In this document: in pieces, positions 1 through 54,739 of the stretch
How positions within the stretch are numbered: position 1 is the stretch's first letter
Layout: each line of letters begins with the position of its first letter
Assembly: GCA_050014175.1 (NCBI GenBank)
Contig: JBEKDV010000001.1
Coordinates: 19,265-83,264, forward strand
Source: Candidatus Solibacter sp.
GTDB taxonomy: Bacteria > Acidobacteriota > Terriglobia > Bryobacterales > Bryobacteraceae
DNA length: 64,000 nucleotides
Direction of reading: 5' to 3'
Made by a program: the position numbers and the translations under genes
Notes under the pieces: generated by a model
The model's input: the letters and a program-made list of their open reading frames with translations, nothing else
Told to the model about the DNA's origin: nothing
Databases searched by the model: none

Positions 1-43
1 CTTTCAGGGCCTGCATCGCACGAGGAAGGTAGTCAATGTTCAT
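1..43 (-). CDS. Partial N-terminus (MNIDYLPRAMQALK...) of a probable RelE/ParE-type toxin; continues beyond the window
   Basis: ATG at 41-43 overlaps the stop of the upstream AbrB-type antitoxin gene (ATGA). The N-terminal pattern resembles ParE/RelE toxins, but only 14 codons are visible. Confidence 0.3.
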   Translation of the reverse strand, partial: MNIDYLPRAMQALK

Positions 44-387
44 CGAGCGCGTTTGGTTTTCTTTGCGGCGGCTCTTTGCTTCAGTTGACCTTTCATGTGC
101 GCGATCATTTCCTCCGCGGTGCTAAACGGTCCGTAGCCGCGGCCGTTCTTCAGCTCTTCTTCCGATTCATCGAGCCGGGCATCGATGATGCGCCGCTGGG
201 CCGGGGTATATTCGTCGTCGGCGTTCGGGAATCGGGAGCGATCAATCACCAACCTCGGGGTGATCACAATTTTGCCGCGCTGGAAGGCAAAATTCACCAG
301 GTCGCCCTTGGACAGCCCGGCCTGGCGCCGGACGCTGGTGGGAATGGTCACCTGGCCTTTGTGCTGGATTTTGGCTGTGGTGTTCAT
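40..387 (-). CDS. AbrB/SpoVT-fold antitoxin
   Basis: KGQVTIPTSVRRQAGLSKGDLVNFAFQRGKIVITP is a SpoVT-AbrB swapped-hairpin motif. The internal ATG at 387 (MNTTAKIQ) is the more plausible start than 450. A 4-nt overlap links it to the downstream gene. Confidence 0.75.
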   Translation of the reverse strand: MNTTAKIQHKGQVTIPTSVRRQAGLSKGDLVNFAFQRGKIVITPRLVIDRSRFPNADDEYTPAQRRIIDARLDESEEELKNGRGYGPFSTAEEMIAHMKGQLKQRAAAKKTKRAR

Positions 388-812
388 AAGAATATGCCTC
401 AGACAAATTCCGGAAGTCCGGAATCCAGTCTTCTGCCTGTAGCATAGCAAATGGGCGCAGCCTGCCAGTCAGGAGAGGCGGCGGGTGCGGTTGGCGCCAG
501 GTCGTCAGGGTTAACAGGAGCCCAGGATCGCAGCGACTTCTTCGGGGTTTCAAAAAGATCTCTCGTGGGAAAGTGCTTCTCGTCCATTGCGAGTCCCGCC
601 GGCCCGGTTTCCAGAAACGGCGTTTACCAATAATCAACACTCAGTGGCCGCGAAGTCGATGGCCAAAACTGCATTCAGCTTATAGACCTCCACATCATCA
701 TCCATCCGGACTTGGCCCGCCCGAACTTTGTGAAAGCGGACAGTGCAGATGCTATCGCTCACTTCGAGATTGGGATCAGGCAACTGGGCATCAACGATGA
801 TCCTGAAAACGC

Positions 813-4343: not shown

Positions 4344-5881
4344 AGAGGTATGTTGCCATGCTTTTTGCGCGGCATCGTGTCCACTTTATTTTCGAGCATG
4401 CGCAGGGCGCGGATGACGCGCGGGCGGGTTTCGCGGGGCTCTATACAATCGTCAACGTAGCCCCGCTCGGCGGCGATGAAAGGGTTGGCGAAGCGCTCGC
4501 GGAATTCGTCCACCTTCTGCCGGCGCACGGCCGCCTCATCGCCGGCGGCGGCGAGTTCGCGGCGGTAGACGATGTTGACCGCGCCTTCGGGCCCCATGAC
4601 GGCGATCTCGGCGGTGGGCCAGGCCAGATTGATGTCGGTGCGCAGATGTTTGGAGCCCATCACGCAATAGGCGCCGCCATAGGCCTTGCGCGTGATCACG
4701 GTGATTTTGGGGACGGTGGCTTCGGCATAGGCGTAGAGCAATTTCGCGCCGTGACGGATGATGCCGCCGAACTCCTGCCCGGTGCCGGGCAAGAAGCCGG
4801 GCACATCCTCGAAGGTGAGGATGGGGATGTTGAAGGCGTCGCAGAAGCGGACGAAGCGGGCGCCTTTGACGGAGGAATCGATATCCAGCACGCCGGCCAG
4901 GAAAGCAGGCTGGTTGCCCACGATGCCGACGGAGCGCCCGTCCATGTGCGCGAATCCGACCACGATGTTCTTGGCCCAATGCTCGTGGACCTCGAAGAAT
5001 TCGCCATCGTCCACCACGCGATGGATCACGTCTTTAATGTCATAAGGCAGGTTGGATTCCGCCGGGACGATGGTGTCGAGGGCGGCGTCCATGCGTTCGA
5101 TGGGATCGTTGGTGGGCCGGCGCGGCGGGTTTTCGCGGTTGTTTTGCGGCAGGTAGGTGAGGAGCTCGCGGATCATGCGGCAGCACTCGGCATCGTCGGC
5201 GGCGATGAAATGGCCTACGCCGGAGACCGAGTTATGGGTCATGGAACCGCCCAGGGTTTCCTTGGTGACGTCCTCATGGGTCACGGTCTTGATGACGTCG
5301 GGACCGGTGACGAACATGTAGCTGGTGCCCTCCACCATGAAGACGAAATCGGTGATGGCGGGCGAGTAGACCGCGCCGCCGGCACAAGGGCCCATGATGG
5401 CGGAGATCTGCGGCACTACTCCACTGGCCAGCGTGTTGCGCAGGAAGATATCGGCGTAGCCGGCGAGAGAAACCACGCCTTCCTGGATGCGCGCGCCGCC
5501 GGAATCGTTGAGGCCGATGACAGGCGCGCCGGTTTTCAGGGCGAGATCCATGATCTTGCAGATCTTCTGCGCATTGGTTTCGGAGAGGGAGCCGCCGAAG
5601 ACGGTGAAATCCTGCGCGAAGACGTAGACCAGGCGGCCGTCCACGCGGCCGTAGCCGGTGACGAAGCCGTCGCCGGGGACTATTGCGGCGTCCATGCCGA
5701 AATCGCGGCAGCGGTGGGTGACGAGCTTGTCGAGTTCCTCGAAGGAGTTCTCGTCGAGCAGGAGCTCGATGCGCTCGCGGGCGCTGAGTTTGCCCTCCTG
5801 GTGCTGGCGGGCGCGGCGCTCAGGGCCCCCACCCTGCTCGGCGGCTTCGTGGCGGAGGCGTAATGCTTCGAGGCGGTTCAT
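4340..5881 (-). CDS. Acyl-CoA carboxylase carboxyltransferase beta subunit (propionyl-CoA carboxylase / methylmalonyl-CoA carboxyltransferase type)
   Basis: 513 aa. The N-terminal region ([14 protein letters not shown]), [13 protein letters not shown] and [12 protein letters not shown] are typical of the carboxyl_transferase family. Confidence 0.9.
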
Positions 5882-7732: not shown

Positions 7733-8869
7733 TCAGCGCACCAGCACGAATTTTCCGTCCGCCTGCAGGTAATACTTCCTTCCGCGCCAGAGGATGGTAT
7801 TGCCGAAGAAGCCGGCCAGCCACATGGCGAAGCTCAGCAGGTCCTGCAACGGAACCAGGAAGAAAAGGCGCGCCGTCAGCGGATCGCGCAGCACATAACC
7901 GGCGGTGGCCCAGCCCGCGGCGACGCGCAGCAGGAGCGTCGCGGCAGCGGCCGGCCACCACTGGGGACGCGCCGCCCAGAGCAGCAGCGCCAGCGGCAGC
8001 GGGTTGGTGAAAAGCTGTCCCACGTAGCCGGCGGGGCGGGAGCGGCGGGTGCTCCTGTTCCAGCGCAGACGATGCTTCAGATTGGCCCACAGCGGCTGCG
8101 CGCCGATGCGGTGCTCGATCACGTAGGAGGAGAGAATGACGCCGTCGCCGCGCGCCGCCGCGAGGTTGCCCATGACGAAATCCTCGGCCAGGAAATCCTT
8201 CACGGCGTCGAAGCCGCCGATGCCAAGGAGCGTGGCGCGGCGCGCCGCAATGGTGGGGCCGAGCGCGAACTTCATGCCATCGAGCAGGCGCGCCACCAGC
8301 ACGCCGCCGATGAATTCCGTGTTCAACCCCAGCGCCTCCAGGGTATTCCAGAAGCTGCGCCCCGGCACCGCGCGATAGGGACACGTGGCCAGCCCGATTC
8401 TGGCATCCTGAAATTCGGCGGCGATGACGGAAAGCATGTCGGGCGTCACGCGGATGTCGCTATCCGACATGACCAGGAGATCGTGGCGCGCCGCCGCCAG
8501 CATGCGGTCCAGGCTGTAGACTTTGGCGTTGGGATAGGGCGGCTCGCCGGTCACGATAAGGCGGGAAGGCACGTTTGGATAGCGCGCGCGCAGGCGCTGG
8601 GCCACCGGAATCGCCGCGTCATCGGGGTTGCGCACGGCGAGGAGGATTTCGAAATCGGGGTACTGCTGTGCGAAAAACGTGCGTAGATTTTCTTCCAGGC
8701 CGTCATCGATTCCAGCCAGCGGTTTGAGGATGCTGATGGGCGCGCCGGAGCGTAATGGCGCGGGGCGCACGGCACGGTAACGCACGGCGGCGACGATGGT
8801 GAGGACGCAGTAGACCGCCGCGCCCGTCACCGCGCCCACAACCGGGGCTAGCAGAAACCAGGGGAGCAC
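7733..8869 (-). CDS. GT2/GT21-type membrane glycosyltransferase (ceramide glucosyltransferase / HpnI-like)
   Basis: The pattern ISILKPLAGIDDGLEENL, MSDSDIRV and RLRWNRSTR, with flanking TM helices, fits the family. Confidence 0.7.
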   Translation of the reverse strand: MLPWFLLAPVVGAVTGAAVYCVLTIVAAVRYRAVRPAPLRSGAPISILKPLAGIDDGLEENLRTFFAQQYPDFEILLAVRNPDDAAIPVAQRLRARYPNVPSRLIVTGEPPYPNAKVYSLDRMLAAARHDLLVMSDSDIRVTPDMLSVIAAEFQDARIGLATCPYRAVPGRSFWNTLEALGLNTEFIGGVLVARLLDGMKFALGPTIAARRATLLGIGGFDAVKDFLAEDFVMGNLAAARGDGVILSSYVIEHRIGAQPLWANLKHRLRWNRSTRRSRPAGYVGQLFTNPLPLALLLWAARPQWWPAAAATLLLRVAAGWATAGYVLRDPLTARLFFLVPLQDLLSFAMWLAGFFGNTILWRGRKYYLQADGKFVLVR

Positions 8870-8889: not shown

Positions 8890-10749
8890 ATGAAGAACAT
8901 CATCGTCGGGACGGCGGGACACATCGATCACGGCAAGACGGCGCTGGTGAAGGCGCTGACGGGGATCGACGCCGACCGGCTGGAGGAAGAAAAGCGCCGC
9001 GGCATCACCATCGATCTGGGGTTCGCGCATCTGGAGCTGACGCCGGCCTTGCGTCTGGGATTCGTGGATGTCCCCGGGCACGAGCGGTTCATTAAAAACA
9101 TGCTGGCAGGGGTGGGCGGAATCGATCTGCTGCTCTTTGCGATCGCCGCCGATGAATCCATCAAGCCGCAGACGCGCGAGCATTTCGACATCTGCCGCCT
9201 GCTCGGTATACGGCGCGGCATCATCGCGCTGACCAAGTCGGACTTGGTGGATGACGACATTCTCGGGCTGGTGCGCCTGGAAGTGGAAGAACTGGTGGCG
9301 GGCTCGTTCCTGGAAGGCGCGCCCATCGTGCCGGTGAGCTCGGTGACGGGCGCCGGGCTGGACGATCTGCGGCGCGAACTGGCACGCGTGGCGGCGGGCG
9401 TCGGGGAGAAGAACGCGGCGGGATATTTCCGGCTGCCAATCGACCGCGTGTTCACCGTAAAGGGCTTCGGCACGGTGGCCACGGGCACGCTGATTTCGGG
9501 ATCGGTGGCCAGGGAGCAGGAAGTGGAAGTCTACCCCGCGGGCCGGCGGCTGCGGGTGCGCGGGGTGCAGGTGCACGGCAGCACGGCGGGCCGGGCGCTG
9601 GCCGGACAGCGCACCGCGGTCAACCTGGCGGATATCGAGCCGGCCGACCTGGCGCGCGGCGACGTGCTGAGCGAGCCTGGGCGGTTCCGCGCGGTGAAGC
9701 AGATCGATTGCCGCCTACAACTGCTGGCATCGGCGAAAGTGTTGAAGCATCGCGCGCCGGTGCACTTTCATTCGGGGACGGCGGAGATCGAGGCGGAGGT
9801 GCGGCTGTTGGAAGGCGGCGCGACTATGCGGCCGGGCACTGCCGCGTACGTGCGCCTGATCTTGCGGGAGGCGGCGCTGCTTTTGCCCGGCGATAGTTTC
9901 ATCATCCGTATGTTCTCGCCGGTGGTGACGATCGGCGGCGGGGTGGTGGTGGATACCGGCGGGCGGCGCTATCGCAAGGGCGACGACGTGAGGGCACGCC
10001 TGGAAACGCTGGGCTCCGGGGATGGCGCGGCGCGCATCGCGCTATTGGTGCGCGAAGCGGCGTTCGGCATGGGCATGGCGGACCTGGTGGCGCGCACCGG
10101 GATGGCCGAGCGCGAGATCGCCTCAGCGGCGGCGCAAGCTCCGCTTGTGGTTATCGCCCAGCCGCGGCCCTGGTATGTGGACCGCGTGTGGATGCAGGCG
10201 GAGCGCGAGCGCATCGTGCACACGGTGCGCGAGTTCCATCGGCAGACGCCACTAGTGCCCGGCATGGCGCGGCAGGAACTGCGCGGCGGCGCGCCGGTGT
10301 TCGTGCTGGACGCGCTGCTGGCGGAGGCGAAAGAGATTGTCGCCGAGGGCGAACTGGTGCGCCTCCGCGGGCACAAAGTGGTGCTCCAGGAAGACGAGGA
10401 GAAGGCGCGCGCCAAGATCGAGCGGGCCTTCGAGGAGGCGGGACTGGCCGTGCCCGCGATGGCGGAGGTGCTGGCCAAATCCGGCGTGGAGGCGGCGCGC
10501 GCCCGCTCCCTGTTGCAGATTCTGTTGCGCGAGAAGCGGCTGGTGCGGATCTCCAGCGAGCTGGTATTTCACCAGACGGCAATCGGCCAGTTGCGAGAGT
10601 TGCTGGTCCGCCACAAGGGCGAGCGCTTTCGCGTGCCGGAGTTCAAGGAGTGGACCGGCATCTCGCGCAAGTACGCGATCCCGCTATTGGAGTTTCTGGA
10701 TCGCGAGAGAATTACGAGGCGGGAAGGGGACGAACGGGTGGTGATATGA
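8890..10749 (+). CDS. selB: Selenocysteine-specific translation elongation factor SelB
   Basis: GTPase N-terminus [43 protein letters not shown], 619 aa, with a long C-terminal winged-helix-type extension. Confidence 0.9.
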
Positions 10750-10771: not shown

Positions 10772-10842
10772 GGATTGGCAGGCTGAAGCCTCTAAGAATG
10801 CGCCCTCGAAAGGGGGCATGGCAGCCTGAAAGGCTACGCTAC
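10772..10842. repeat. Composite REP: gattggcaggctgaagcc module plus a family B element (aagaatgcNccc-cgaa-gggggcatggcagcc..gaaaggctacgctac)
   Basis: Family B recurs at 21011-21060, 38341-38390 and 61820-61879. This copy overlaps the stop codon of the minus-strand aminotransferase. Confidence 0.85.
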
Positions 10843-12026
10843 AACGCTGGCGCGACGGCCGCTTCCCAACGCGACGAAACTTTTTGGATTCTGGCAATCG
10901 CTTCCTTCAAGTTCGCCTGGGAATTGGCGTAGCTGAAACGGATGTAGCCATCGCCGTACTGGCCGAAGCATCCTCCGTTGAGCCCGGCGACACCGGCCTC
11001 GTACAGCAGGAAATCCGCCAGTTCTTTGGAGGGGATCCCAGTGGCGGTGACATTGGCGAAGGCGTAAAACGCCCCGCCCGGCAGGGCGCAGCGGAAGCCC
11101 GGAATCCGGTTCAGCCCGGCGACCAGGATGTCGCGGCGCCGGTGGAACTCGGCCACCATCGTGTCGATGCAATCGCGCGGCCCGGTGAGCGCCGCGATGC
11201 CGGCGCGCTGCGTGAAACTGGCGGTGCACGAATTGGAGTTCACCATCAGCTTGTTGACCGCGTCCACCAGCCACTCGGGCATGACGCCGTAACCCATGCG
11301 CCATCCGGTCATGGCGTAGGTCTTGGAAAAGCCGTCGAGGATGATGGTCTTTTCCAGCATCCCCGGAAACGCGGTGATCGACACCGGCGGCTCGCCGTAG
11401 CAAATCTCCGAGTAGATTTCATCGCTCAGCACGATCACGTCGCGCTCGCGCAGCAGGTCCGCGATCGCCTTGAGGTCCTGGCGCGGGATCACTCCGCCGG
11501 TGGGATTTTGCGGCGAGTTCAGCACCACCATCTTGGTGCGTTCCGTCAACAGGTGTTCGAAGCGGTTCAGGTCGAAGGAGAAGCCGCGGCTTTCTTCCAG
11601 GGGCATCGGCACGGGCGTCGCGCCGCAGAAGCGGATCATGGATTCGTAGATGGGAAATCCCGGGTTGGGATAGACGACTTCGTCGCCCGGTTCCAAGAGC
11701 GCCAGCATGGGGAAGAAGATGATCGGCTTGCCGCCGGGGACTACCGAGACGTGCTGCGGGCCTACCGGAATGCTTCGCGTGCGCGAAATGTGGGCGGCGA
11801 TGGCTTCCCGCAATTCGGGCTGGCCCTGCGTGGGCCCGTAGTGAGTCCAGCCCTCGTCAAGGGCCTGCTTGGCGGCGGCGATCACGTGGGGAGGAGTCGG
11901 GAAATCGGGCTCGCCGATTTCCAGGTGAATCACGCTGCGGCCTAGCGCTTCCAGCGCACGGGCGCGCACCAGAACGTCGAAAGCCGATTCGACGCCGATG
12001 CGGGACATTCTTTCTGCGAGCTTCAT
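10839..12026 (-). CDS. Class I/II PLP-dependent aminotransferase (aspartate aminotransferase-like)
   Basis: 395 aa, with NPxNPTG (SPQNPTGGV) and the SKTYAMTGWRMGY lysine motif. Confidence 0.85.
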   Translation of the reverse strand: MKLAERMSRIGVESAFDVLVRARALEALGRSVIHLEIGEPDFPTPPHVIAAAKQALDEGWTHYGPTQGQPELREAIAAHISRTRSIPVGPQHVSVVPGGKPIIFFPMLALLEPGDEVVYPNPGFPIYESMIRFCGATPVPMPLEESRGFSFDLNRFEHLLTERTKMVVLNSPQNPTGGVIPRQDLKAIADLLRERDVIVLSDEIYSEICYGEPPVSITAFPGMLEKTIILDGFSKTYAMTGWRMGYGVMPEWLVDAVNKLMVNSNSCTASFTQRAGIAALTGPRDCIDTMVAEFHRRRDILVAGLNRIPGFRCALPGGAFYAFANVTATGIPSKELADFLLYEAGVAGLNGGCFGQYGDGYIRFSYANSQANLKEAIARIQKVSSRWEAAVAPAL

Positions 12027-22561: not shown

Positions 22562-23146
22562 TTACCCCGCCGGCAACGGGGCCGCCGGACGGCGCCGTTC
22601 CACTTCCCGCCGCAGCATCGTCAGCAGCCGCTCGATTCCGCTGTCCCAATCGGGAAACAGGTCGATGTATTGCAATTCGTGTTGGATGGTTCGCGGCACG
22701 GGGCACTCGTCCAGCCGCAGCGGAACGATATAGATCTCATCCAGCGGCACCTGCCGGGCGCAATCGAGCGCGTAGCGTAGTTCCGACTGGAATCCACCCT
22801 TTTTTCGTACCGAGTTCCCCGAAAAACAAGCTACGAAAAAATCGGAGCTTTCGATGGCGGCCTCGATCGCCCGCGGCCAGTTCTGCCCGGCCAGCAGTTT
22901 CCGCACGTCCATCCAGGGACTGAAGCCCGCGCGGTTCAGATCTTCGTAGAGCCGACTGGCGAGCACTTCATCCTCCCTGCCGTAGGCGATGAATACCTGC
23001 GGCAACGCTCGCGGTACGAAGCGGAATCCCCGCCGCGCGTCGGGGTAGAAGACGCCCAACCCGTCGATCTCCACCGTCTTCCCGGCGGCTACCCCGCGCG
23101 CCACAATTCGCGCCACTTGTTGGCAGGCGTCGCAGCATTTAGGCAC
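22562..23146 (-). CDS. TIR-domain protein with a short HU-like (helix + GLGxF) N-terminal module
   Basis: VFIAYGREDEVLASRLYEDLNRAGFSPWMDVRKLLAGQNWPRAIEAAIESSDFFVACFS...FQSELRYAL is a TIR_2-type domain. GTG at 23144-23146 is preceded by GGGAGGGAAG. The ATG at 23248 would overlap the upstream gene by 110 nt. Confidence 0.7.
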   Translation of the reverse strand: MPKCCDACQQVARIVARGVAAGKTVEIDGLGVFYPDARRGFRFVPRALPQVFIAYGREDEVLASRLYEDLNRAGFSPWMDVRKLLAGQNWPRAIEAAIESSDFFVACFSGNSVRKKGGFQSELRYALDCARQVPLDEIYIVPLRLDECPVPRTIQHELQYIDLFPDWDSGIERLLTMLRREVERRRPAAPLPAG

Positions 23147-23348
23147 GCCGCTTCCCTCCCTCCCGTTGGAAAACCAACCGGCCGTCGGCTCCCGGCCGAA
23201 AGCACCCCAAACCGGGAAGCCTCGTTTCTTTCCCGTGGCGCAGGCCATCGAGTATCTCCTGAACCATTCGATCCAGCCGGTCGGCCGCCTCGCCTCGTGT
23301 TCCGCCCGACTGACGGGCCATCTTTTTCGCGATTTCAGGCTTCTTCAT
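23139..23348 (-). CDS. Small HU/IHF-superfamily-like protein (truncated; no DNA-wrapping arm)
   Basis: 69 aa: MKKPEIAKKMARQSG.TRGEAADRLDRMVQEILDGLRHGKETRLPGLGCF follows the HU helix1-helix2-strand pattern. 8-nt overlap with the TIR gene. Confidence 0.55.
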   Translation of the reverse strand: MKKPEIAKKMARQSGGTRGEAADRLDRMVQEILDGLRHGKETRLPGLGCFRPGADGRLVFQREGGKRRA

Positions 23349-37256: not shown

Positions 37257-38330
37257 GTGGGATATGCTGGTTCCATGCCGCGATTCCGCCCGCTCTTCTT
37301 CGGCGCATGCCTGGCCGTGGCCGCGGCGCTGCTCCCCGCGCAAGCCGTCAAATATGGTCCCGCGCCGGGGCAGCGGGCCGCCGATTTTTCCCTGCCGGAC
37401 CAGGATGGCCGGACCCAGACCCTGCGTTCCGTGATGGGTCCCAAGGGCCTGATGCTGGTCTTCTACCGCTCGGCCGACTGGTGACCGTTCTGCAAGACGC
37501 AACTGGTCGAGTTGCAGCAGAATCTGGAGCGCATCCACAAGCGCGGGCTCGGGCTGGCCGCCATCAGCTCCGATTCGGTGGCGGTGCTGAAGAGTTTCGC
37601 CGACCGCAAGAAGATTACGTATGCGCTGCTTTCCGACGCGGATTCGAAGGCGATCCGCGCCTTCGGTATCTTCAACGACAGCATCCAACCGGACGCCATG
37701 TCCTACGGCGTGCCCTACCCCGGCACCTACATCCTCGATACCAATGGGGTCGTGGTTTCGCGGTACTTCGAAGACGATTACCGCGAGCGCTTCTCGGCCT
37801 CCGACATACTGGTGCGCCAGTTCGGCGACGTGGCGGCGGAGGCGGCGGGGACGGTGCAGGGCAAACAGGTCCGCCTGACCACCGCCGCCAGCATGCCGAT
37901 GGCGCATCCGGGCGAGCGCATCCTGTTGAGCCTGGAACTCGAGCTCAAACCGAAGATGCACGTGTATGCTCCGGGTGTGGCGGGCTACATCCCGATCGAG
38001 TGGAAGCTGGCGGATGGTCTTATGGTCAAGGCGCATGAGCTTGTCTACCCAGCCTCGGAAATGCTCCGGCTAAAGGCCATTGGAGAAACGGTGCCGGTGT
38101 ATCGCGGGCGCATCCGGCTGACCCGCGAAATCACTTTCGGCGCCGAGAATGTGGTGCGGCCTCTGCTCTCGCCGTCCGGCGAACTGGTGCTGAAAGGGTC
38201 TTTCCGCTACCAGGCGTGCGACGACCGGGTCTGCTATCCGCCCGAGACGGTCCCGCTGGAATGGCATTTTCCGTTCGAGGGGCTGGTGAGAGAGCGCGCC
38301 CCGGCGGAGCTGCAGAGGAAGGCGCGGTAG
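37257..38330 (+). CDS. Exported selenocysteine-containing redoxin (W-U-P-F-C) fused to a DsbD-N-like domain; UGA-Sec at 37482-37484
   Basis: Two track ORFs (37257-37484 and 37512-38330) share a frame and are separated only by TGA. Readthrough gives FYRSADW-U-PFCKTQL. The C-terminal part has YQACDDRVCYPP. The start may instead be the ATG at 37275. Confidence 0.7.
37490..37517 (+). promoter_or_regulatory. SECIS-like stem-loop downstream of the in-frame UGA
   Basis: CTGCAA-GAC-gcaactg-GTC-gag-TTGCAG. The upper stem begins 11 nt after the UGA, and G-G-U lies near the apex. Confidence 0.5.
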
Positions 38331-38340
38331 GGAGTAAATG

Positions 38341-38390
38341 AAGAATGCCCCCTCGAAAGGGGTCATGGCAGCCTCGAAAGGCTACGCTAC
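38341..38390. repeat. REP family B copy
   Basis: aagaatgccccctcgaaaggggtcatggcagcctcgaaaggctacgctac. It overlaps the rsmA stop codon at 38382-38384. Confidence 0.85.
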
Positions 38391-39131
38391 AGGGGGGAGA
38401 CGCCGGAACATCGCGGCGAACTGCTCCAGGGCGATTTGTTCGGCGCGCAGGCCGGCTTCCGGCCAGGGGTCGATCGCTTCTTTCCCATAGATCCCGGCGA
38501 GATTATTGCGCAGTGTCTTGCGTTTCTGGCCGAAGCAGTGGCCGAGGAATCGCAGGAATGCCTCGCGGCTGCCCACGCCCAGTTCGAGGGTGTGGGGCGT
38601 CAGCAGCACCACGGCGGAATCCACCTGAGGGGGCGGGCGGAAGCTTCCGGGCTTGACCTCGAACAGCAGCCGCGTGCCGGCGAACAGCGCGGTCTGCAAA
38701 GTGAGGTACCCGTACTCGCGGCAGCCGGGCCTCGCGACGAGGCGCTCGGCGACTTCCTTCTGCATTAGGAAAACAATGCGCGGAACGTCCAGGCGGACCG
38801 CTTTCTCCAGGATGGGCGAGGTGATGTAGTACGGCAGGTTGCCGGCGATGGGCGCGCGGCCCCAGCGCGCCAGGTCGGTGGCCAGGATGTCGGCGTGCAC
38901 GATTTCCAGGCGCGGCTCGCCGGCGAATTTCGTCCGCAGGTGTGCCACCAGCCCGGCGTCGATTTCGATGGCCACGACGCGGGCGGCGCGGCGCAGGAGC
39001 TTCTCGGTCAGCGCGCCGCGGCCGGGGCCGATCTCGATCACCAGGTCTTCGCCCGCCGGGCAGGTGGCAACGGCAATGCGCTCCAGAACGCTCGCGTTGC
39101 TGAGGAAATGCTGGCCGAGTTTTGGCGGCAA
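38382..39131 (-). CDS. rsmA: 16S rRNA (adenine1518/1519-N6)-dimethyltransferase
   Basis: LGQHFL N-terminus, EIGPGRGALT SAM motif and GNLPYYITSPIL. Confidence 0.9.
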   Translation of the reverse strand: MPPKLGQHFLSNASVLERIAVATCPAGEDLVIEIGPGRGALTEKLLRRAARVVAIEIDAGLVAHLRTKFAGEPRLEIVHADILATDLARWGRAPIAGNLPYYITSPILEKAVRLDVPRIVFLMQKEVAERLVARPGCREYGYLTLQTALFAGTRLLFEVKPGSFRPPPQVDSAVVLLTPHTLELGVGSREAFLRFLGHCFGQKRKTLRNNLAGIYGKEAIDPWPEAGLRAEQIALEQFAAMFRRLPPVA

Positions 39132-39140
39132 GGTGGGCGG

Positions 39141-39857
39141 CTAGCTCCGCAGCCGGTTGCCGCGGGTGAAGACCACCTGCTTCAGGCCCCACGTGGGCTG
39201 GCCACTGACCGTGGCTGGCACGAATTGCGAGAACATGATCAGGCTCGCCATCTCGTCCGTCAACTCGCCGCCAGAGAGGTAGTAATCCCGCACGTGGCCG
39301 CGCTCGTCAACCAGCAGGGTCAGCGACACCTCATTGCCATATATGACCGCGTCGCCGGGAAGCAGTCGCGCGTGATCGGCGGTGGCGCCGACGATTTTGC
39401 CATCCGGATCGCCCCACTGCACATCGGTGACGGCAACCGCCAGGGGCGGTTCATAGCTGTGGCTGTGCGGGAAACTGAGCGTGGGAACCAACAGGCTGAA
39501 GAGCACGAACGCCGAGAGCACGCCGCCGGTGACGGGCACGGCGAAGGGCCGCATCATGTTGTCGAAGGCCAGGCGGGTGGCCGTCATCCAATGCGCCAGA
39601 CGCGCCGAAAGATTGCGGCGCGCGATGCGGCGCGCGCATTCGTGCGACGCGATGACGCGGAGCTGGGTGGAGAGGGCGGCGGGCACGCGGGGGCGCGCCA
39701 TGTCGCGCAGGCTCGCGCGCATGTACTGCATGGATTCGAATCGCTCGCCGCACTTGCCGCACACGTCCAAGTGCGCCAACACATGCTCCCGCTCACCGGC
39801 CGGCAGGTTACAGTCCAGCAGAAGGGAGATCCGTTTTTGCACGTTTTCACAGCTCAT
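39141..39857 (-). CDS. Anti-sigma factor (zf-HC2 type, membrane-anchored)
   Basis: HVLAHLDVCGKCGERF zinc-finger motif. Starts 4 nt after the ECF sigma gene. One TM (VTGGVLSAFVLFSLLV). Confidence 0.65.
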   Translation of the reverse strand: MSCENVQKRISLLLDCNLPAGEREHVLAHLDVCGKCGERFESMQYMRASLRDMARPRVPAALSTQLRVIASHECARRIARRNLSARLAHWMTATRLAFDNMMRPFAVPVTGGVLSAFVLFSLLVPTLSFPHSHSYEPPLAVAVTDVQWGDPDGKIVGATADHARLLPGDAVIYGNEVSLTLLVDERGHVRDYYLSGGELTDEMASLIMFSQFVPATVSGQPTWGLKQVVFTRGNRLRS

Positions 39858-39861
39858 AGCA

Positions 39862-40542
39862 TCACTCTGCCAATTTGGCCACTAGTCGCGGGACCGCGCC
39901 CGATTGCAGGCTTCCCACGAGTTCTTCCCGCAGGGCTTCACGGCCGCGCAGGATTCGGGATTTCACTGTTCCCAACGAAACCCCGAGGATTTCCGCGATT
40001 TCCTCGTAAGCCAGGTCCGAGATGTCTCGCAGCGCCACGGCTTCCCGGAAGATCGGGTTGATTCTCTTCAGCGCAGCCTCAATCATGATGTGCTGTTCGC
40101 CGTCGAAGGCCGCCTCAAAGGGAGAACGGCCGCGATCTGGAATGATCTCCTTCCAATTGCGGGACTCTTCCGGATTCTTATCCAACTCCACCTCGGCGCG
40201 CCGATGCCGAAAAAACCAGCGCCGGGCGTTGTGGGCTTCATTCACCGTAATCCGGTAGATCCACGTTTTCAGAGTGCTTTGGCCGCGGAAACTACCCACG
40301 TTCCGAAAGACCTTCAAGAATACTTCCTGAACCACGTCGCAGGCCTCGGCCTGATCGTCCAAGAGTCGCAAGGCGAGTGCGTAAACGGGTTGCTGGAAGC
40401 GGATCAGCAACTCCTCGTAGGCCCTTTCGGAACCTTCGCGCAAGCACTCTACAAGGTGGAGATCCGCCGCGTCCACCGTTTCCGCTGTACGGTCCGGGCT
40501 TAAATCGAAGATGGAAGTGCCCACGGGGAGCCTCACATTCAA
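39862..40542 (-). CDS. ECF-type RNA polymerase sigma factor
   Basis: Region 2 (DVVQEVFLKVFRN) and region 4 (REAVALRDISDLAYEEIAEILGVSLGTVKSRILRGR). Confidence 0.85.
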   Translation of the reverse strand: MNVRLPVGTSIFDLSPDRTAETVDAADLHLVECLREGSERAYEELLIRFQQPVYALALRLLDDQAEACDVVQEVFLKVFRNVGSFRGQSTLKTWIYRITVNEAHNARRWFFRHRRAEVELDKNPEESRNWKEIIPDRGRSPFEAAFDGEQHIMIEAALKRINPIFREAVALRDISDLAYEEIAEILGVSLGTVKSRILRGREALREELVGSLQSGAVPRLVAKLAE

Positions 40543-53027: not shown

Positions 53028-53690
53028 ATGTCACGAACCCATACTCCGGTCACGAATGAACTGGCGGACTACATCCGCCAGGTAACGCTGCGCGAACCCG
53101 AAGCGCTGCGCCAACAACGCGAAGCCACCGATCCGCATCCGCAAGCCTCCATGCAGACCTCGCCCGAACAGGGCCAGTTGCTGCATCTGCTGGCGCGCCT
53201 GGCGGGGGCGACGAGGGCGCTGGAGGTGGGCGTGTTCCTGGGCTACAGTTCCGCCTGGGTGGCGCTGGCGCTGCCCGAAGGCGGCAAAATCGTCGCCTGC
53301 GACCGGAGCAGGAAGTACACCGCCCAGGCGCGGCGGCTGTGGCGCGAGGCCGGCGTGGAAGACAAGATCGAATTGCGCCTCGGTCCCGCCCTGGATACGC
53401 TCGATGCCCTGATCGCCGAGGGGAACAGCGGCAGCTTTGACTTTGCCTTCATCGACGCCGATAAAGCCAACTATGCGAACTATTACGACCGCGCGCTGGC
53501 GCTGGTGCGTCGCGGCGGCCTCATCGTGATCGACAACGTGTTGTGGCACGGCGATGTGACGGACGCCAGCAAGACCGATGCGGACACGGAGGCCATTCGC
53601 GCCTTCAACCGCAAACTACGCGCCGACGAGCGCGTGGCGCTGAGCCTGGTGCCGCTGGGCGACGGACTGACACTGGCGTGCAAACTCTGA
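53028..53690 (+). CDS. Class I SAM-dependent O-methyltransferase (caffeoyl-CoA OMT / Methyltransf_3 family)
   Basis: LEVGVFLGYSSAWVALAL, FDFAFIDADKANY and LVRRGGLIVIDNVLWHG. Confidence 0.85.
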   Translation: MSRTHTPVTNELADYIRQVTLREPEALRQQREATDPHPQASMQTSPEQGQLLHLLARLAGATRALEVGVFLGYSSAWVALALPEGGKIVACDRSRKYTAQARRLWREAGVEDKIELRLGPALDTLDALIAEGNSGSFDFAFIDADKANYANYYDRALALVRRGGLIVIDNVLWHGDVTDASKTDADTEAIRAFNRKLRADERVALSLVPLGDGLTLACKL

Positions 53691-54739
53691 CCGCGCCCAC
53701 CATCTTTCCCTGCTACGCGGCGGCCGATCGCGGCATCGCGGAGCGCCTGGCGGCGTTATTGGAACGCGGCGCCGACGTGCGCGTGTTCCTCGACGAAGGG
53801 CAAATGGCGGACGGCGCGGACCTCGCCGAAAAGGCGCGCGAGGCCCGCATGGCGGATATCGTCGTCGTGCTGTTCTCGCGAAATTCTTTGCCTTCGCGCT
53901 GGCCGCGCGCGCAGTGGGAAGACGCCCTGGTGAAGGAGCCGGCGGAGGAAGGCGTGCGCATCGCTTTCGTCAAGTGCGACGATTGCATCCCGCCGCGCGT
54001 GCTCACCCCCATGTTCGACGCCGCCCGATTGCGCGAGGTGAAGCGCTGGGTGCGCGGCAGCGAACCGGGCGAACCGCCCGCCGCCGAATTCTCCGCCGAC
54101 CTGGAGGTGCTGGGCATTGCGATCGCCGACCGTCCGGGCGCGGAAACCGTGCGGAACATCGCGCTGGCCCGCGAATTCGCCCGCGCCTTTGGCGGCGATT
54201 TCGACGCGGTGCTCCACCTCGATTGCGCCACCGGCACGCTGGCCGACATGGCCGGCGATCTGGCGTGCCAGGTGGGCCTGCATCTGGAAGGCGAGTTGGC
54301 CGCCAATCTGGAACATCTGCGCATTTTCTCGGAGGCGCGCCGCTTTCTGATCGTGCTGGAAGGCGGCGCCCCCGCCGACCTGACCTTCGGCGCGCGCTGC
54401 TCGACACTCATTTCGACCGAACCCGGCGAGCCCTCGCAGGACGCCTTGCGCCAACTGGCGCGCGCCTTCGATGCCGTGGAGGATTGGACGGAGGCCTGCC
54501 GTCTGGCGCGTCAGGCCCGCCGCGTGGCGCACGAGCAGTTCCGCCTGGCCGAATGCTTCGAGATCATGACCCAATGGCGGGCCATGGCGGAGGAGCACGA
54601 CGATCGCCCGGCCGTCGACGAGGCCAGCCGCGAGCTCGTTTGGATTCTGGATGGCTGGGGCCGCACGGAAGAAGCCCGCCAATTGGAACAGACGCGCGCC
54701 ATGGAGTTCGACGAGCAGTTGCCGTTGTTCTTCGGGTAA
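53678..54739 (+). CDS. TIR-like domain protein with a degenerate STAND/NB-ARC-like module and a helical C-terminus
   Basis: IFPCYAAADRGIAERLAALLERGADVRVFLD...IVVVLFSRNSLPSRWPRAQWEDAL is TIR-like. VLGIAIADRPGAETV occupies the place of a Walker A, and FLIVLEGG the place of a Walker B. The start is uncertain (GTG 53678 or CTG 53687); the ATG at 53543 was rejected. Confidence 0.55.
   Translation: MQTLTAPTIFPCYAAADRGIAERLAALLERGADVRVFLDEGQMADGADLAEKAREARMADIVVVLFSRNSLPSRWPRAQWEDALVKEPAEEGVRIAFVKCDDCIPPRVLTPMFDAARLREVKRWVRGSEPGEPPAAEFSADLEVLGIAIADRPGAETVRNIALAREFARAFGGDFDAVLHLDCATGTLADMAGDLACQVGLHLEGELAANLEHLRIFSEARRFLIVLEGGAPADLTFGARCSTLISTEPGEPSQDALRQLARAFDAVEDWTEACRLARQARRVAHEQFRLAECFEIMTQWRAMAEEHDDRPAVDEASRELVWILDGWGRTEEARQLEQTRAMEFDEQLPLFFG

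Follow-up and report, generated by a model that had tools for sequence, protein, structure and literature searches.

The question raised by this locus is whether a UGA codon at positions 37482–37484 ends a short open reading frame (ORF) or is read as selenocysteine (Sec, U) within a longer one. The locus is on contig JBEKDV010000001.1 of Candidatus Solibacter sp., in a stretch of 64,000 nt that was analyzed as a whole and is referred to here as the window. A first-pass annotation of the window proposed that the in-frame UGA joins two ORFs into one protein, and the present analysis agrees. The segment 37275–38330 is very probably one gene that encodes an exported, two-domain selenoprotein, with the UGA decoded as Sec through SelB and a hairpin in the mRNA; this reading comes from sequence comparison. 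The gene and its main landmarks are:

37275–38330, plus strand: the whole selenoprotein gene of 351 codons (Sec70 included), stop codon TAG at 38328–38330
37275–37346, plus strand: predicted signal peptide of the Sec secretion type, MPRFRPLFFGACLAVAAALLPAQA, read off the sequence, with putative cleavage at AQA/VK
37482–37484, plus strand: in-frame UGA as selenocysteine 70, a TGA in 79/80 species-level loci and a Cys codon in full-length homologues

Translation of the plus strand frame 37257–38330 shows that this TGA is the sole internal stop before the terminal TAG. ATG 37275 (MPRFRPLFF...) is the likely start of the gene, and GTG 37257 is an alternative start. The N-terminus of each orthologue is basic and then hydrophobic, i.e., similar to a signal peptide. 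Reading through the TGA gives the peptide FYRSADW-U-PFCKTQLVELQQ, in which the TGA is the first position of a UxxC motif (W-U-P-F-C). One frame is maintained throughout: the G+C content at third codon positions (GC3) is 0.84 on the 5' side of the TGA and 0.83 on the 3' side, and the Pfam AhpC-TSA domain spans the codon. The 40 codons 5' of the TGA have no stops in 77 species, and show divergence of 0.33, 0.28 and 0.53 at codon positions 1, 2 and 3, respectively. A six-frame scan of the 64-kb window for in-frame TGA codons with coding-like (GC3) flanks found only TGA 37482–37484 and no other selenoprotein gene.

The codon was compared across relatives in two ways. A protein search with the window sequence, with U written as C, gave 2053 hits, of which the best 120 clusters were inspected. 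A scan of one genome per species gave 562 stretches confirmed by tblastn, and the best 80 of these were used for locus counts. All 80 are from Acidobacteriota (Bryobacterales, Solibacteraceae, Terriglobia). The aligned codon is TGA in 79 of the 80 and TGT (Cys) in one, L005. In the protein alignment, the column of U is occupied by Cys in 12 more distant, full-length homologues (SADWCP[FY]CK), and 51 unique metagenome genes with TGY at this position share the architecture of the selenoprotein. The alignment of U with the first Cys of WCPxC, as proposed in the first-pass annotation, is thus borne out by both sets. Locus L005 (6166, TGT) is 91% identical to L006 (6202, TGA), and has lost two stem pairs of the downstream hairpin through synonymous changes (CAACUCGUUGAACUG in L005 vs CAGCUCGUGGAGCUG in L006). 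L005 looks like a recent conversion from Sec to Cys.

The hairpin is located within the ORF, directly 3' of the UGA. It resembles a selenocysteine insertion sequence (SECIS), and two elements are distinguished:

37499–37515, plus strand: core SECIS-like hairpin, GCAACU 37499–37504, loop GGUCG 37505–37509, AGUUGC 37510–37515
37488–37522, plus strand: extended element, in which an optional lower stem is formed by UUCUGC 37488–37493 and GCAGAA 37517–37522; present in the minimum free energy (MFE) fold of the window sequence

The core hairpin begins at nt 18, where the U of UGA is nt 1, and its loop has G25-U26. An alignment of 77 distinct TGA sites (alignment A2, where columns 30 and 33 correspond to window positions 37505 and 37508) shows that 95% of the cells of the upper helix are paired. 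Pair 27-37 is G-C in 65 sequences, A-U in 11 and G-U in one, and is never broken. Changes on both sides of the helix are found in this pair, in pair 28-36 (C-G in 75, U-A in 2) and in pair 24-40 (C-G in 44, G-C in 11). The upper helix has a covariation score of 0.154; shuffles give 0.113 (0/500), and slid controls do not exceed 0.066. RNAalifold independently gives the same stem, with 5 bp and a 5-nt loop. The compensatory changes are synonymous: Gln codons CAG/CAA pair with Leu codons CUG/UUG, and Leu codons CUN/UUG pair with Glu codons GAG/GAA.

The first-pass annotation had also described a hairpin after the UGA. A hairpin is indeed present, but its register differs, and the conserved pairing is that of GCAACU 37499–37504 with AGUUGC 37510–37515. 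The earlier register, with CTGCAA 37490–37495 and GAC on the 5' side and GTC and TTGCAG 37512–37517 on the 3' side, is rejected on account of its 63% pairing across species and a covariation no higher than that of shuffles (67/500). Conservation of the hairpin in orthologues, on which the proposal was said to depend, is found in the shifted register, where all five core pairs are possible in 75/77 (97%) of the TGA genes.

Genes with Cys at the same position provide a control. These were fetched with a degenerate pattern specific for TGY, and 69 are unique. The five core pairs are possible in only 25 of the 69 (36%), which differs strongly from the proportion in Sec genes (Fisher 7e-17). When the comparison is limited to Cys genes with the identical QLVEL peptide, the core pairs are possible in 8/28 (p 4e-13 against the 75/77 Sec genes). 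The Sec and Cys forms encode the same QLVEL, and the hairpin is kept by the Sec forms only, a compact natural demonstration that a SECIS can constrain synonymous sites. At the loop codon, Val (GUN) is found in 77/77 Sec genes, vs Leu or Ile in over half of the Cys genes. The loop has the form NGUNG, and its variants in the Sec genes are CGUGG (45), GGUCG (19) and CGUCG (11). The loop GGUGG is present in no Sec gene and in 6 Cys genes; its absence from Sec genes may reflect a constraint of SelB recognition.

The element was also compared with known bacterial SECIS (bSECIS) structures. In E. coli fdhF the loop G-U is G23-U24. The window hairpin is similarly an in-ORF stem loop with a small loop that starts with G and then U, but its G-U is 2 nt further from the UGA (+25/+26), its stem has only 5–6 bp, there is no conserved bulged U, and the lower stem is weak. 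The annotation had argued from an 11-nt spacing between the UGA and the stem; with the loop G-U displaced in this way, that argument does not apply. The bSECIS consensus has a loop of 3–9 nt, an upper stem of at least 4 bp, a G within the first two loop positions, a distance of 16–37 nt from the UGA and an MFE of -7.5 kcal/mol or lower (PMC13188914). The window element lies within every one of these limits, with a loop of 5 nt, a stem of 5–6 bp, a spacing of 20 nt and an MFE of -15.5 kcal/mol for the 45 nt after the UGA; the MFE is -7.5 kcal/mol or lower in 97% of the orthologues. No Rfam family matched the window at gathering thresholds, nor did any match 37400–37620 at E ≤ 10.

The elongation factor that would read this element is encoded in the same window, as the annotation had stated:

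8890–10749, plus strand: selB, Sec-specific elongation factor, TIGR00475, 363 bits vs a cut-off of 242, full model length

The selB gene acts in trans, 27 kb from the selenoprotein gene. It is flanked by hpnI (7733–8869, minus strand) and an aminotransferase gene (10839–12026, minus strand). This lone selB is unlike the selAB arrangement of E. coli. Homologues of SelB are found within 6 kb of the orthologous selenoprotein gene in two loci, L025 and L050. In L050, from a Candidatus Acidoferrum metagenome-assembled genome, a homologue with 43% identity at 1925–~3785 (plus strand) lies just upstream and on the same strand as the selenoprotein gene, whose TGA is at 4354. In L025, a SelB fragment with 75% identity is at 3–557 (minus strand), about 5.6 kb upstream of the selenoprotein gene. 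The sequences of both SelA and SelB from Solibacter usitatus are in the supplement of PMC1794560.

Three other explanations of the TGA have to be weighed against decoding as Sec. If the TGA were a genuine stop, the locus would encode a secreted peptide of ~69 aa and a separate protein of 272 aa that starts at TTG 37512. Such a division is what the databases suggest, as they hold more than 100 calls of 272–275 aa and the nearly identical contig L170 is called as 69 aa + 272 aa. TGA also terminates other genes of the window normally, i.e., 6 of the 14 confidently identified ones, and a genome-wide reassignment of TGA is rejected for this reason. However, a stop here would cut the AhpC-TSA domain in two and leave a downstream product with no redox motif and no signal peptide. 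In 79/80 species both the frame and the TGA are retained, and the sequence on either side of the codon is under purifying selection. The RNA hairpin downstream is kept only where the codon is TGA, and the full-length Cys homologues are continuous. The latter point answers a question posed by the first-pass annotation, whether homologues end at the UGA; the two-gene calls represent split annotation. A genuine stop is therefore highly improbable. A pseudogene, or an assembly or sequencing error that changed a Cys codon (TGC/TGT) to TGA, would need only a single-base change, and the protein does have an unusual Ser at a near-invariant Tyr99. Nevertheless, 79 independent assemblies at the species level, as well as many metagenome contigs, have the same TGA in an intact frame, and this explanation is effectively refuted.

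The remaining alternative keeps the read-through but assigns it to a standard tRNA, whether near-cognate (Trp or Cys) or a suppressor, in place of Sec-tRNASec. Some database entries seem to favor this, in that the full-length proteins P0073, P0075 and P0008 show W or L at the Sec position. In the case of P0073, the DNA (L169, 128–1168) has a TGA, and the W is there because a TGA gene was called under another genetic code. It is also true that no selA, selD or selC gene is found in the 64 kb of the source genome that were analyzed. On the other hand, SelB is encoded in the window, and it is not known to have a role beyond Sec insertion. The hairpin agrees with the consensus for SECIS elements of the SelB type, and its loop GU is invariant. 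The position is that of a catalytic Cys in homologues, which is the classic Sec/Cys pair, and the relative S. usitatus has SelA and SelB. Read-through by a standard tRNA thus appears very unlikely.

Some observations do weigh against decoding of the UGA as Sec. There is no selA, selD or tRNA-Sec gene within the 64-kb window, which has no tRNA gene at all, and no tRNA-Sec gene was found in 60 related loci. The lower stem 37488–37493/37517–37522 is weakly conserved (69% paired across species), and although it is formed in the window sequence it is rejected as a conserved part of the element. The stability of the hairpin is unremarkable in comparison with shuffles (z values of -1.84 and 0.08); since stability alone is not significant, support for the element rests on the comparative data.

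What kind of protein would result is indicated by its two domains. The N-terminal one carries the Sec:

37365–37757, plus strand: thioredoxin-fold domain (Pfam AhpC-TSA/Redoxin, aa 31–161), with the redox motif U70-P-F-C73

The Pfam AhpC-TSA match has 107 bits and an E value of 8e-31, with U entered as C. An AlphaFold2 (AF2) model of the Cys homologue P0006, which is 62% identical, has a pLDDT of 85.9 and matches BCP/PrxQ/AhpE and ResA with TMt values of 0.72–0.80. The best matches of the domain in both sequence and structure are the BCP/PrxQ and AhpE peroxiredoxins. In alignments of the sequence with BCP (2cx3) and AhpE, U70 takes the place of the Thr/Ser in the peroxiredoxin (Prx) motif PxxxT/SxxC, and C73 that of the peroxidatic Cys. 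The window protein differs from these in that the motif Pro is replaced by Arg, the Thr/Ser by Sec, and the catalytic Arg by Pro149 (a cis-Pro-type position). Only the Cys (C73) is retained. A true peroxiredoxin is rejected, as the catalytic Pro, Thr and Arg are missing from the active site, and none of the NCBIfam models, including the peroxiredoxin ones, reaches its cut-off on the window protein. The earlier comparison with peroxiredoxin-like proteins has to be corrected in this respect. Because the Prx catalytic residues are replaced, the active site is of the CxxC (TlpA/ResA) type, and judged by the aligned residues the N-terminal site is that of a thioredoxin (Trx)/TlpA/ResA-type UxxC thiol:disulfide oxidoreductase and not a canonical peroxiredoxin.

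Codon 99 (37569–37571, TCC) encodes Ser in the window protein, where the family has a nearly invariant Tyr (AISYDS). P0001, which is 98% identical, has Tyr at this position. Ser99 may be genuine variation or reflect an erroneous base.

The C-terminal half has a different fold and a second pair of redox residues:

37902–38249, plus strand: DsbD-alpha/ScsB-alpha-like all-beta domain (Pfam DsbD_N, PF11412, aa 210–325), from Pfam, AF2 and Foldseek
38217–38234, plus strand: second redox pair C315-DDRV-C320 (motif RYQACDDRVCYPPE), both Cys invariant in the family

The similarity to the N-terminal domain of DsbD that had been suggested for this half is supported by Pfam (E 7e-11, 42.6 bits vs a cut-off of 25). 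An AF2 model built from the C-terminal sequence of the window protein itself is all-beta (pLDDT 88.6), in line with the immunoglobulin-like beta-sandwich of solved alpha domains. Foldseek gave it a single significant match in the Protein Data Bank (PDB), to the N-terminal, periplasmic domain of ScsB (6c29, E 3e-4, TMq 0.53). Searches of PDB sequences with this domain by phmmer and by profile gave no match, and its relationship to known structures was seen only with Pfam, Foldseek and hhalign. Comparison with E. coli DsbD by hhalign places RYQACDD-RVCYPPET on TYQGCADAGFCYPPET with a probability of 67% and an E value of 5e-5. In this alignment C315 and C320 fall on C122 and C128 of the DsbD precursor, i.e., C103 and C109 of the mature protein, which are the catalytic pair.

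Like the DsbD (alpha-beta-gamma) and ScsB electron-transfer systems, the window protein combines an alpha-type beta-sandwich, whose catalytic Cys pair lies in YQxC...CYPPE, with a Trx-fold or Prx-like partner in the periplasm. It differs in that the alpha domain is at the C-terminus and is joined covalently to this partner, a Trx-fold domain that uses Sec. The Cys spacing is C-x4-C in the window protein and C-x5-C in DsbD. Compared with the membrane transporters DsbD, ScsB and CcdA, the window protein has no transmembrane beta domain and is soluble apart from the signal peptide. A related database protein, P0007 (615 aa, from an 865-kb ENA contig), has 39% identity over 91% of the query and the same Pfam domains together with PF13911. 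It may represent a duplicated or extended architecture.

These features suggest how the protein is probably made and how it might be used. The decoding step has strong support: at UGA 37482–37484, SelB with GTP and Sec-tRNASec would bind the in-ORF hairpin 37499–37515 (loop GGUCG, G25-U26), and this complex would lead to the insertion of selenocysteine instead of termination. Cleavage of the signal peptide would then yield a periplasmic protein with two redox centers, U70-x-x-C73 on the thioredoxin-fold (TlpA/ResA/PrxL-like) domain and C315-x4-C320 on the DsbD-alpha/ScsB-alpha-like beta-sandwich. The alpha-like domain might accept electrons from a membrane system of the DsbD/CcdA/ScsB type and hand them on to the UxxC domain. 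There the selenolate, which occupies the attacking position in the CxxC-type site, would act as the terminal reductant of oxidized envelope targets such as disulfides, sulfenic acids and possibly peroxides.

The alpha domains of DsbD and ScsB exchange electrons with periplasmic Trx-fold proteins (PMC3322552), and for this reason a relay between C315/C320 and U70/C73 is proposed. ScsB reduces the periplasmic proteins TlpA, PprX and PrxL, and Caulobacter PrxL has no detectable peroxidase activity (Cho et al. 2012, PMC3322552). The inactivity of PrxL and the loss of the Prx catalytic residues argue against a peroxidase activity of the window protein. By analogy with these systems, the two pairs may form a tethered selenenylsulfide/disulfide relay that is fed by a membrane reductase, with the selenolate attacking oxidized envelope substrates; this proposal is tentative. 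Two points tell against it. The direction of electron flow in the relay is a guess, and de novo clustering of the genes in the 80 loci gave no real recurrent neighbor, with neither DsbD/CcdA nor any other gene conserved next to the selenoprotein gene. It is conceivable, though less likely than not, that the fusion of a Sec Trx-fold domain with a DsbD/ScsB-alpha domain, typical of soil Acidobacteriota with its 562 stretches, represents an uncharacterized, self-contained extracytoplasmic redox relay, with the alpha domain as a built-in adaptor from the membrane reductase to the selenolate center. If the relay does operate, selenium would play a significant part in the redox homeostasis of the envelope in a phylum that is abundant in soil. 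A UxxC Trx-fold domain linked covalently to a DsbD-alpha-like domain is itself uncharacterized, and could be studied in cultured S. usitatus.

The protein is related to a family that is already on record. The 'Prx-like thiol:disulfide oxidoreductase' family (PF00578, UxxC/UxxU) is a long-known family of predicted selenoproteins (PMC9312934, PMC13188914). Zhang et al. 2006 (PMC1794560, supplementary file 4) list under the Prx-like heading a Solibacter usitatus protein with the sequence ...FYRSADWUPYCKTQLVELEQ...RYQACDDKKCYTPETVPLEW... The window protein is 70% identical to it over 333 residues with no gaps. The two have in common the motif FYRSADW-U-P[FY]CKTQLVEL and the C-terminal RYQACDDxxCYxPETVPLEW, and the S. 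usitatus protein, from another acidobacterial species, is an orthologue. With PF00578, Sec in UxxC and orthology to a listed member, the window protein belongs to the Prx-like selenoprotein family. The description of the gene as a hidden selenoprotein does not hold for the field, where this orthologue has been on record since 2006. By sequence, the window gene is an orthologue of a selenoprotein predicted in that year, of a standard protein class and with a standard mechanism of recoding. PMC1794560 and later reviews (PMC9312934, PMC13188914) define the class by the Prx-like domain only and mention neither a DsbD-alpha-like C-terminal domain nor SECIS covariation. Deltaproteobacterial members in PMC1794560 (e.g., from Desulfotalea) have ~210 aa and a single domain. 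The fusion with the alpha domain, the evidence from SECIS covariation and the Cys control, the extent of the family in Acidobacteriota and its mis-annotation appear to be undescribed in the literature examined.

The mis-annotation is extensive. Gene callers had been expected to split or truncate this gene, and they do: 104 of the best 120 clusters, including NCBI records, are called from a start just after the TGA and cover 67–78% of the query, and only 16 are full length. In metagenome contig L170, which is 98% identical, the gene is present as a 69-aa orphan and a 272-aa 'AhpC-TSA/DsbD_N' protein. In the best-matching sets the selenoprotein gene is thus mostly split or truncated in public data, and the family has no NCBIfam model. 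As a consequence, metagenome surveys probably undercount the use of selenium by soil Acidobacteriota.

The genes that surround the selenoprotein gene in the window are not conserved with it. Its neighbors LolD-like, RsmA, ClpB and ECF sigma/anti-sigma recur in at most 3 of the 80 loci, and conserved operon partners are rejected on this basis. Downstream and convergent to the selenoprotein gene, positions 38382–40542 (minus strand) have rsmA/ksgA and genes for a zf-HC2 anti-sigma factor and an ECF sigma factor, an arrangement that is not kept in relatives except in contig L170. Two TIR-domain genes, unrelated to the selenoprotein, are found elsewhere in the window at 22562–23248 (minus strand) and 53543–54739 (plus strand), with Pfam TIR_2 E values of 3e-27 and 6e-15, respectively.

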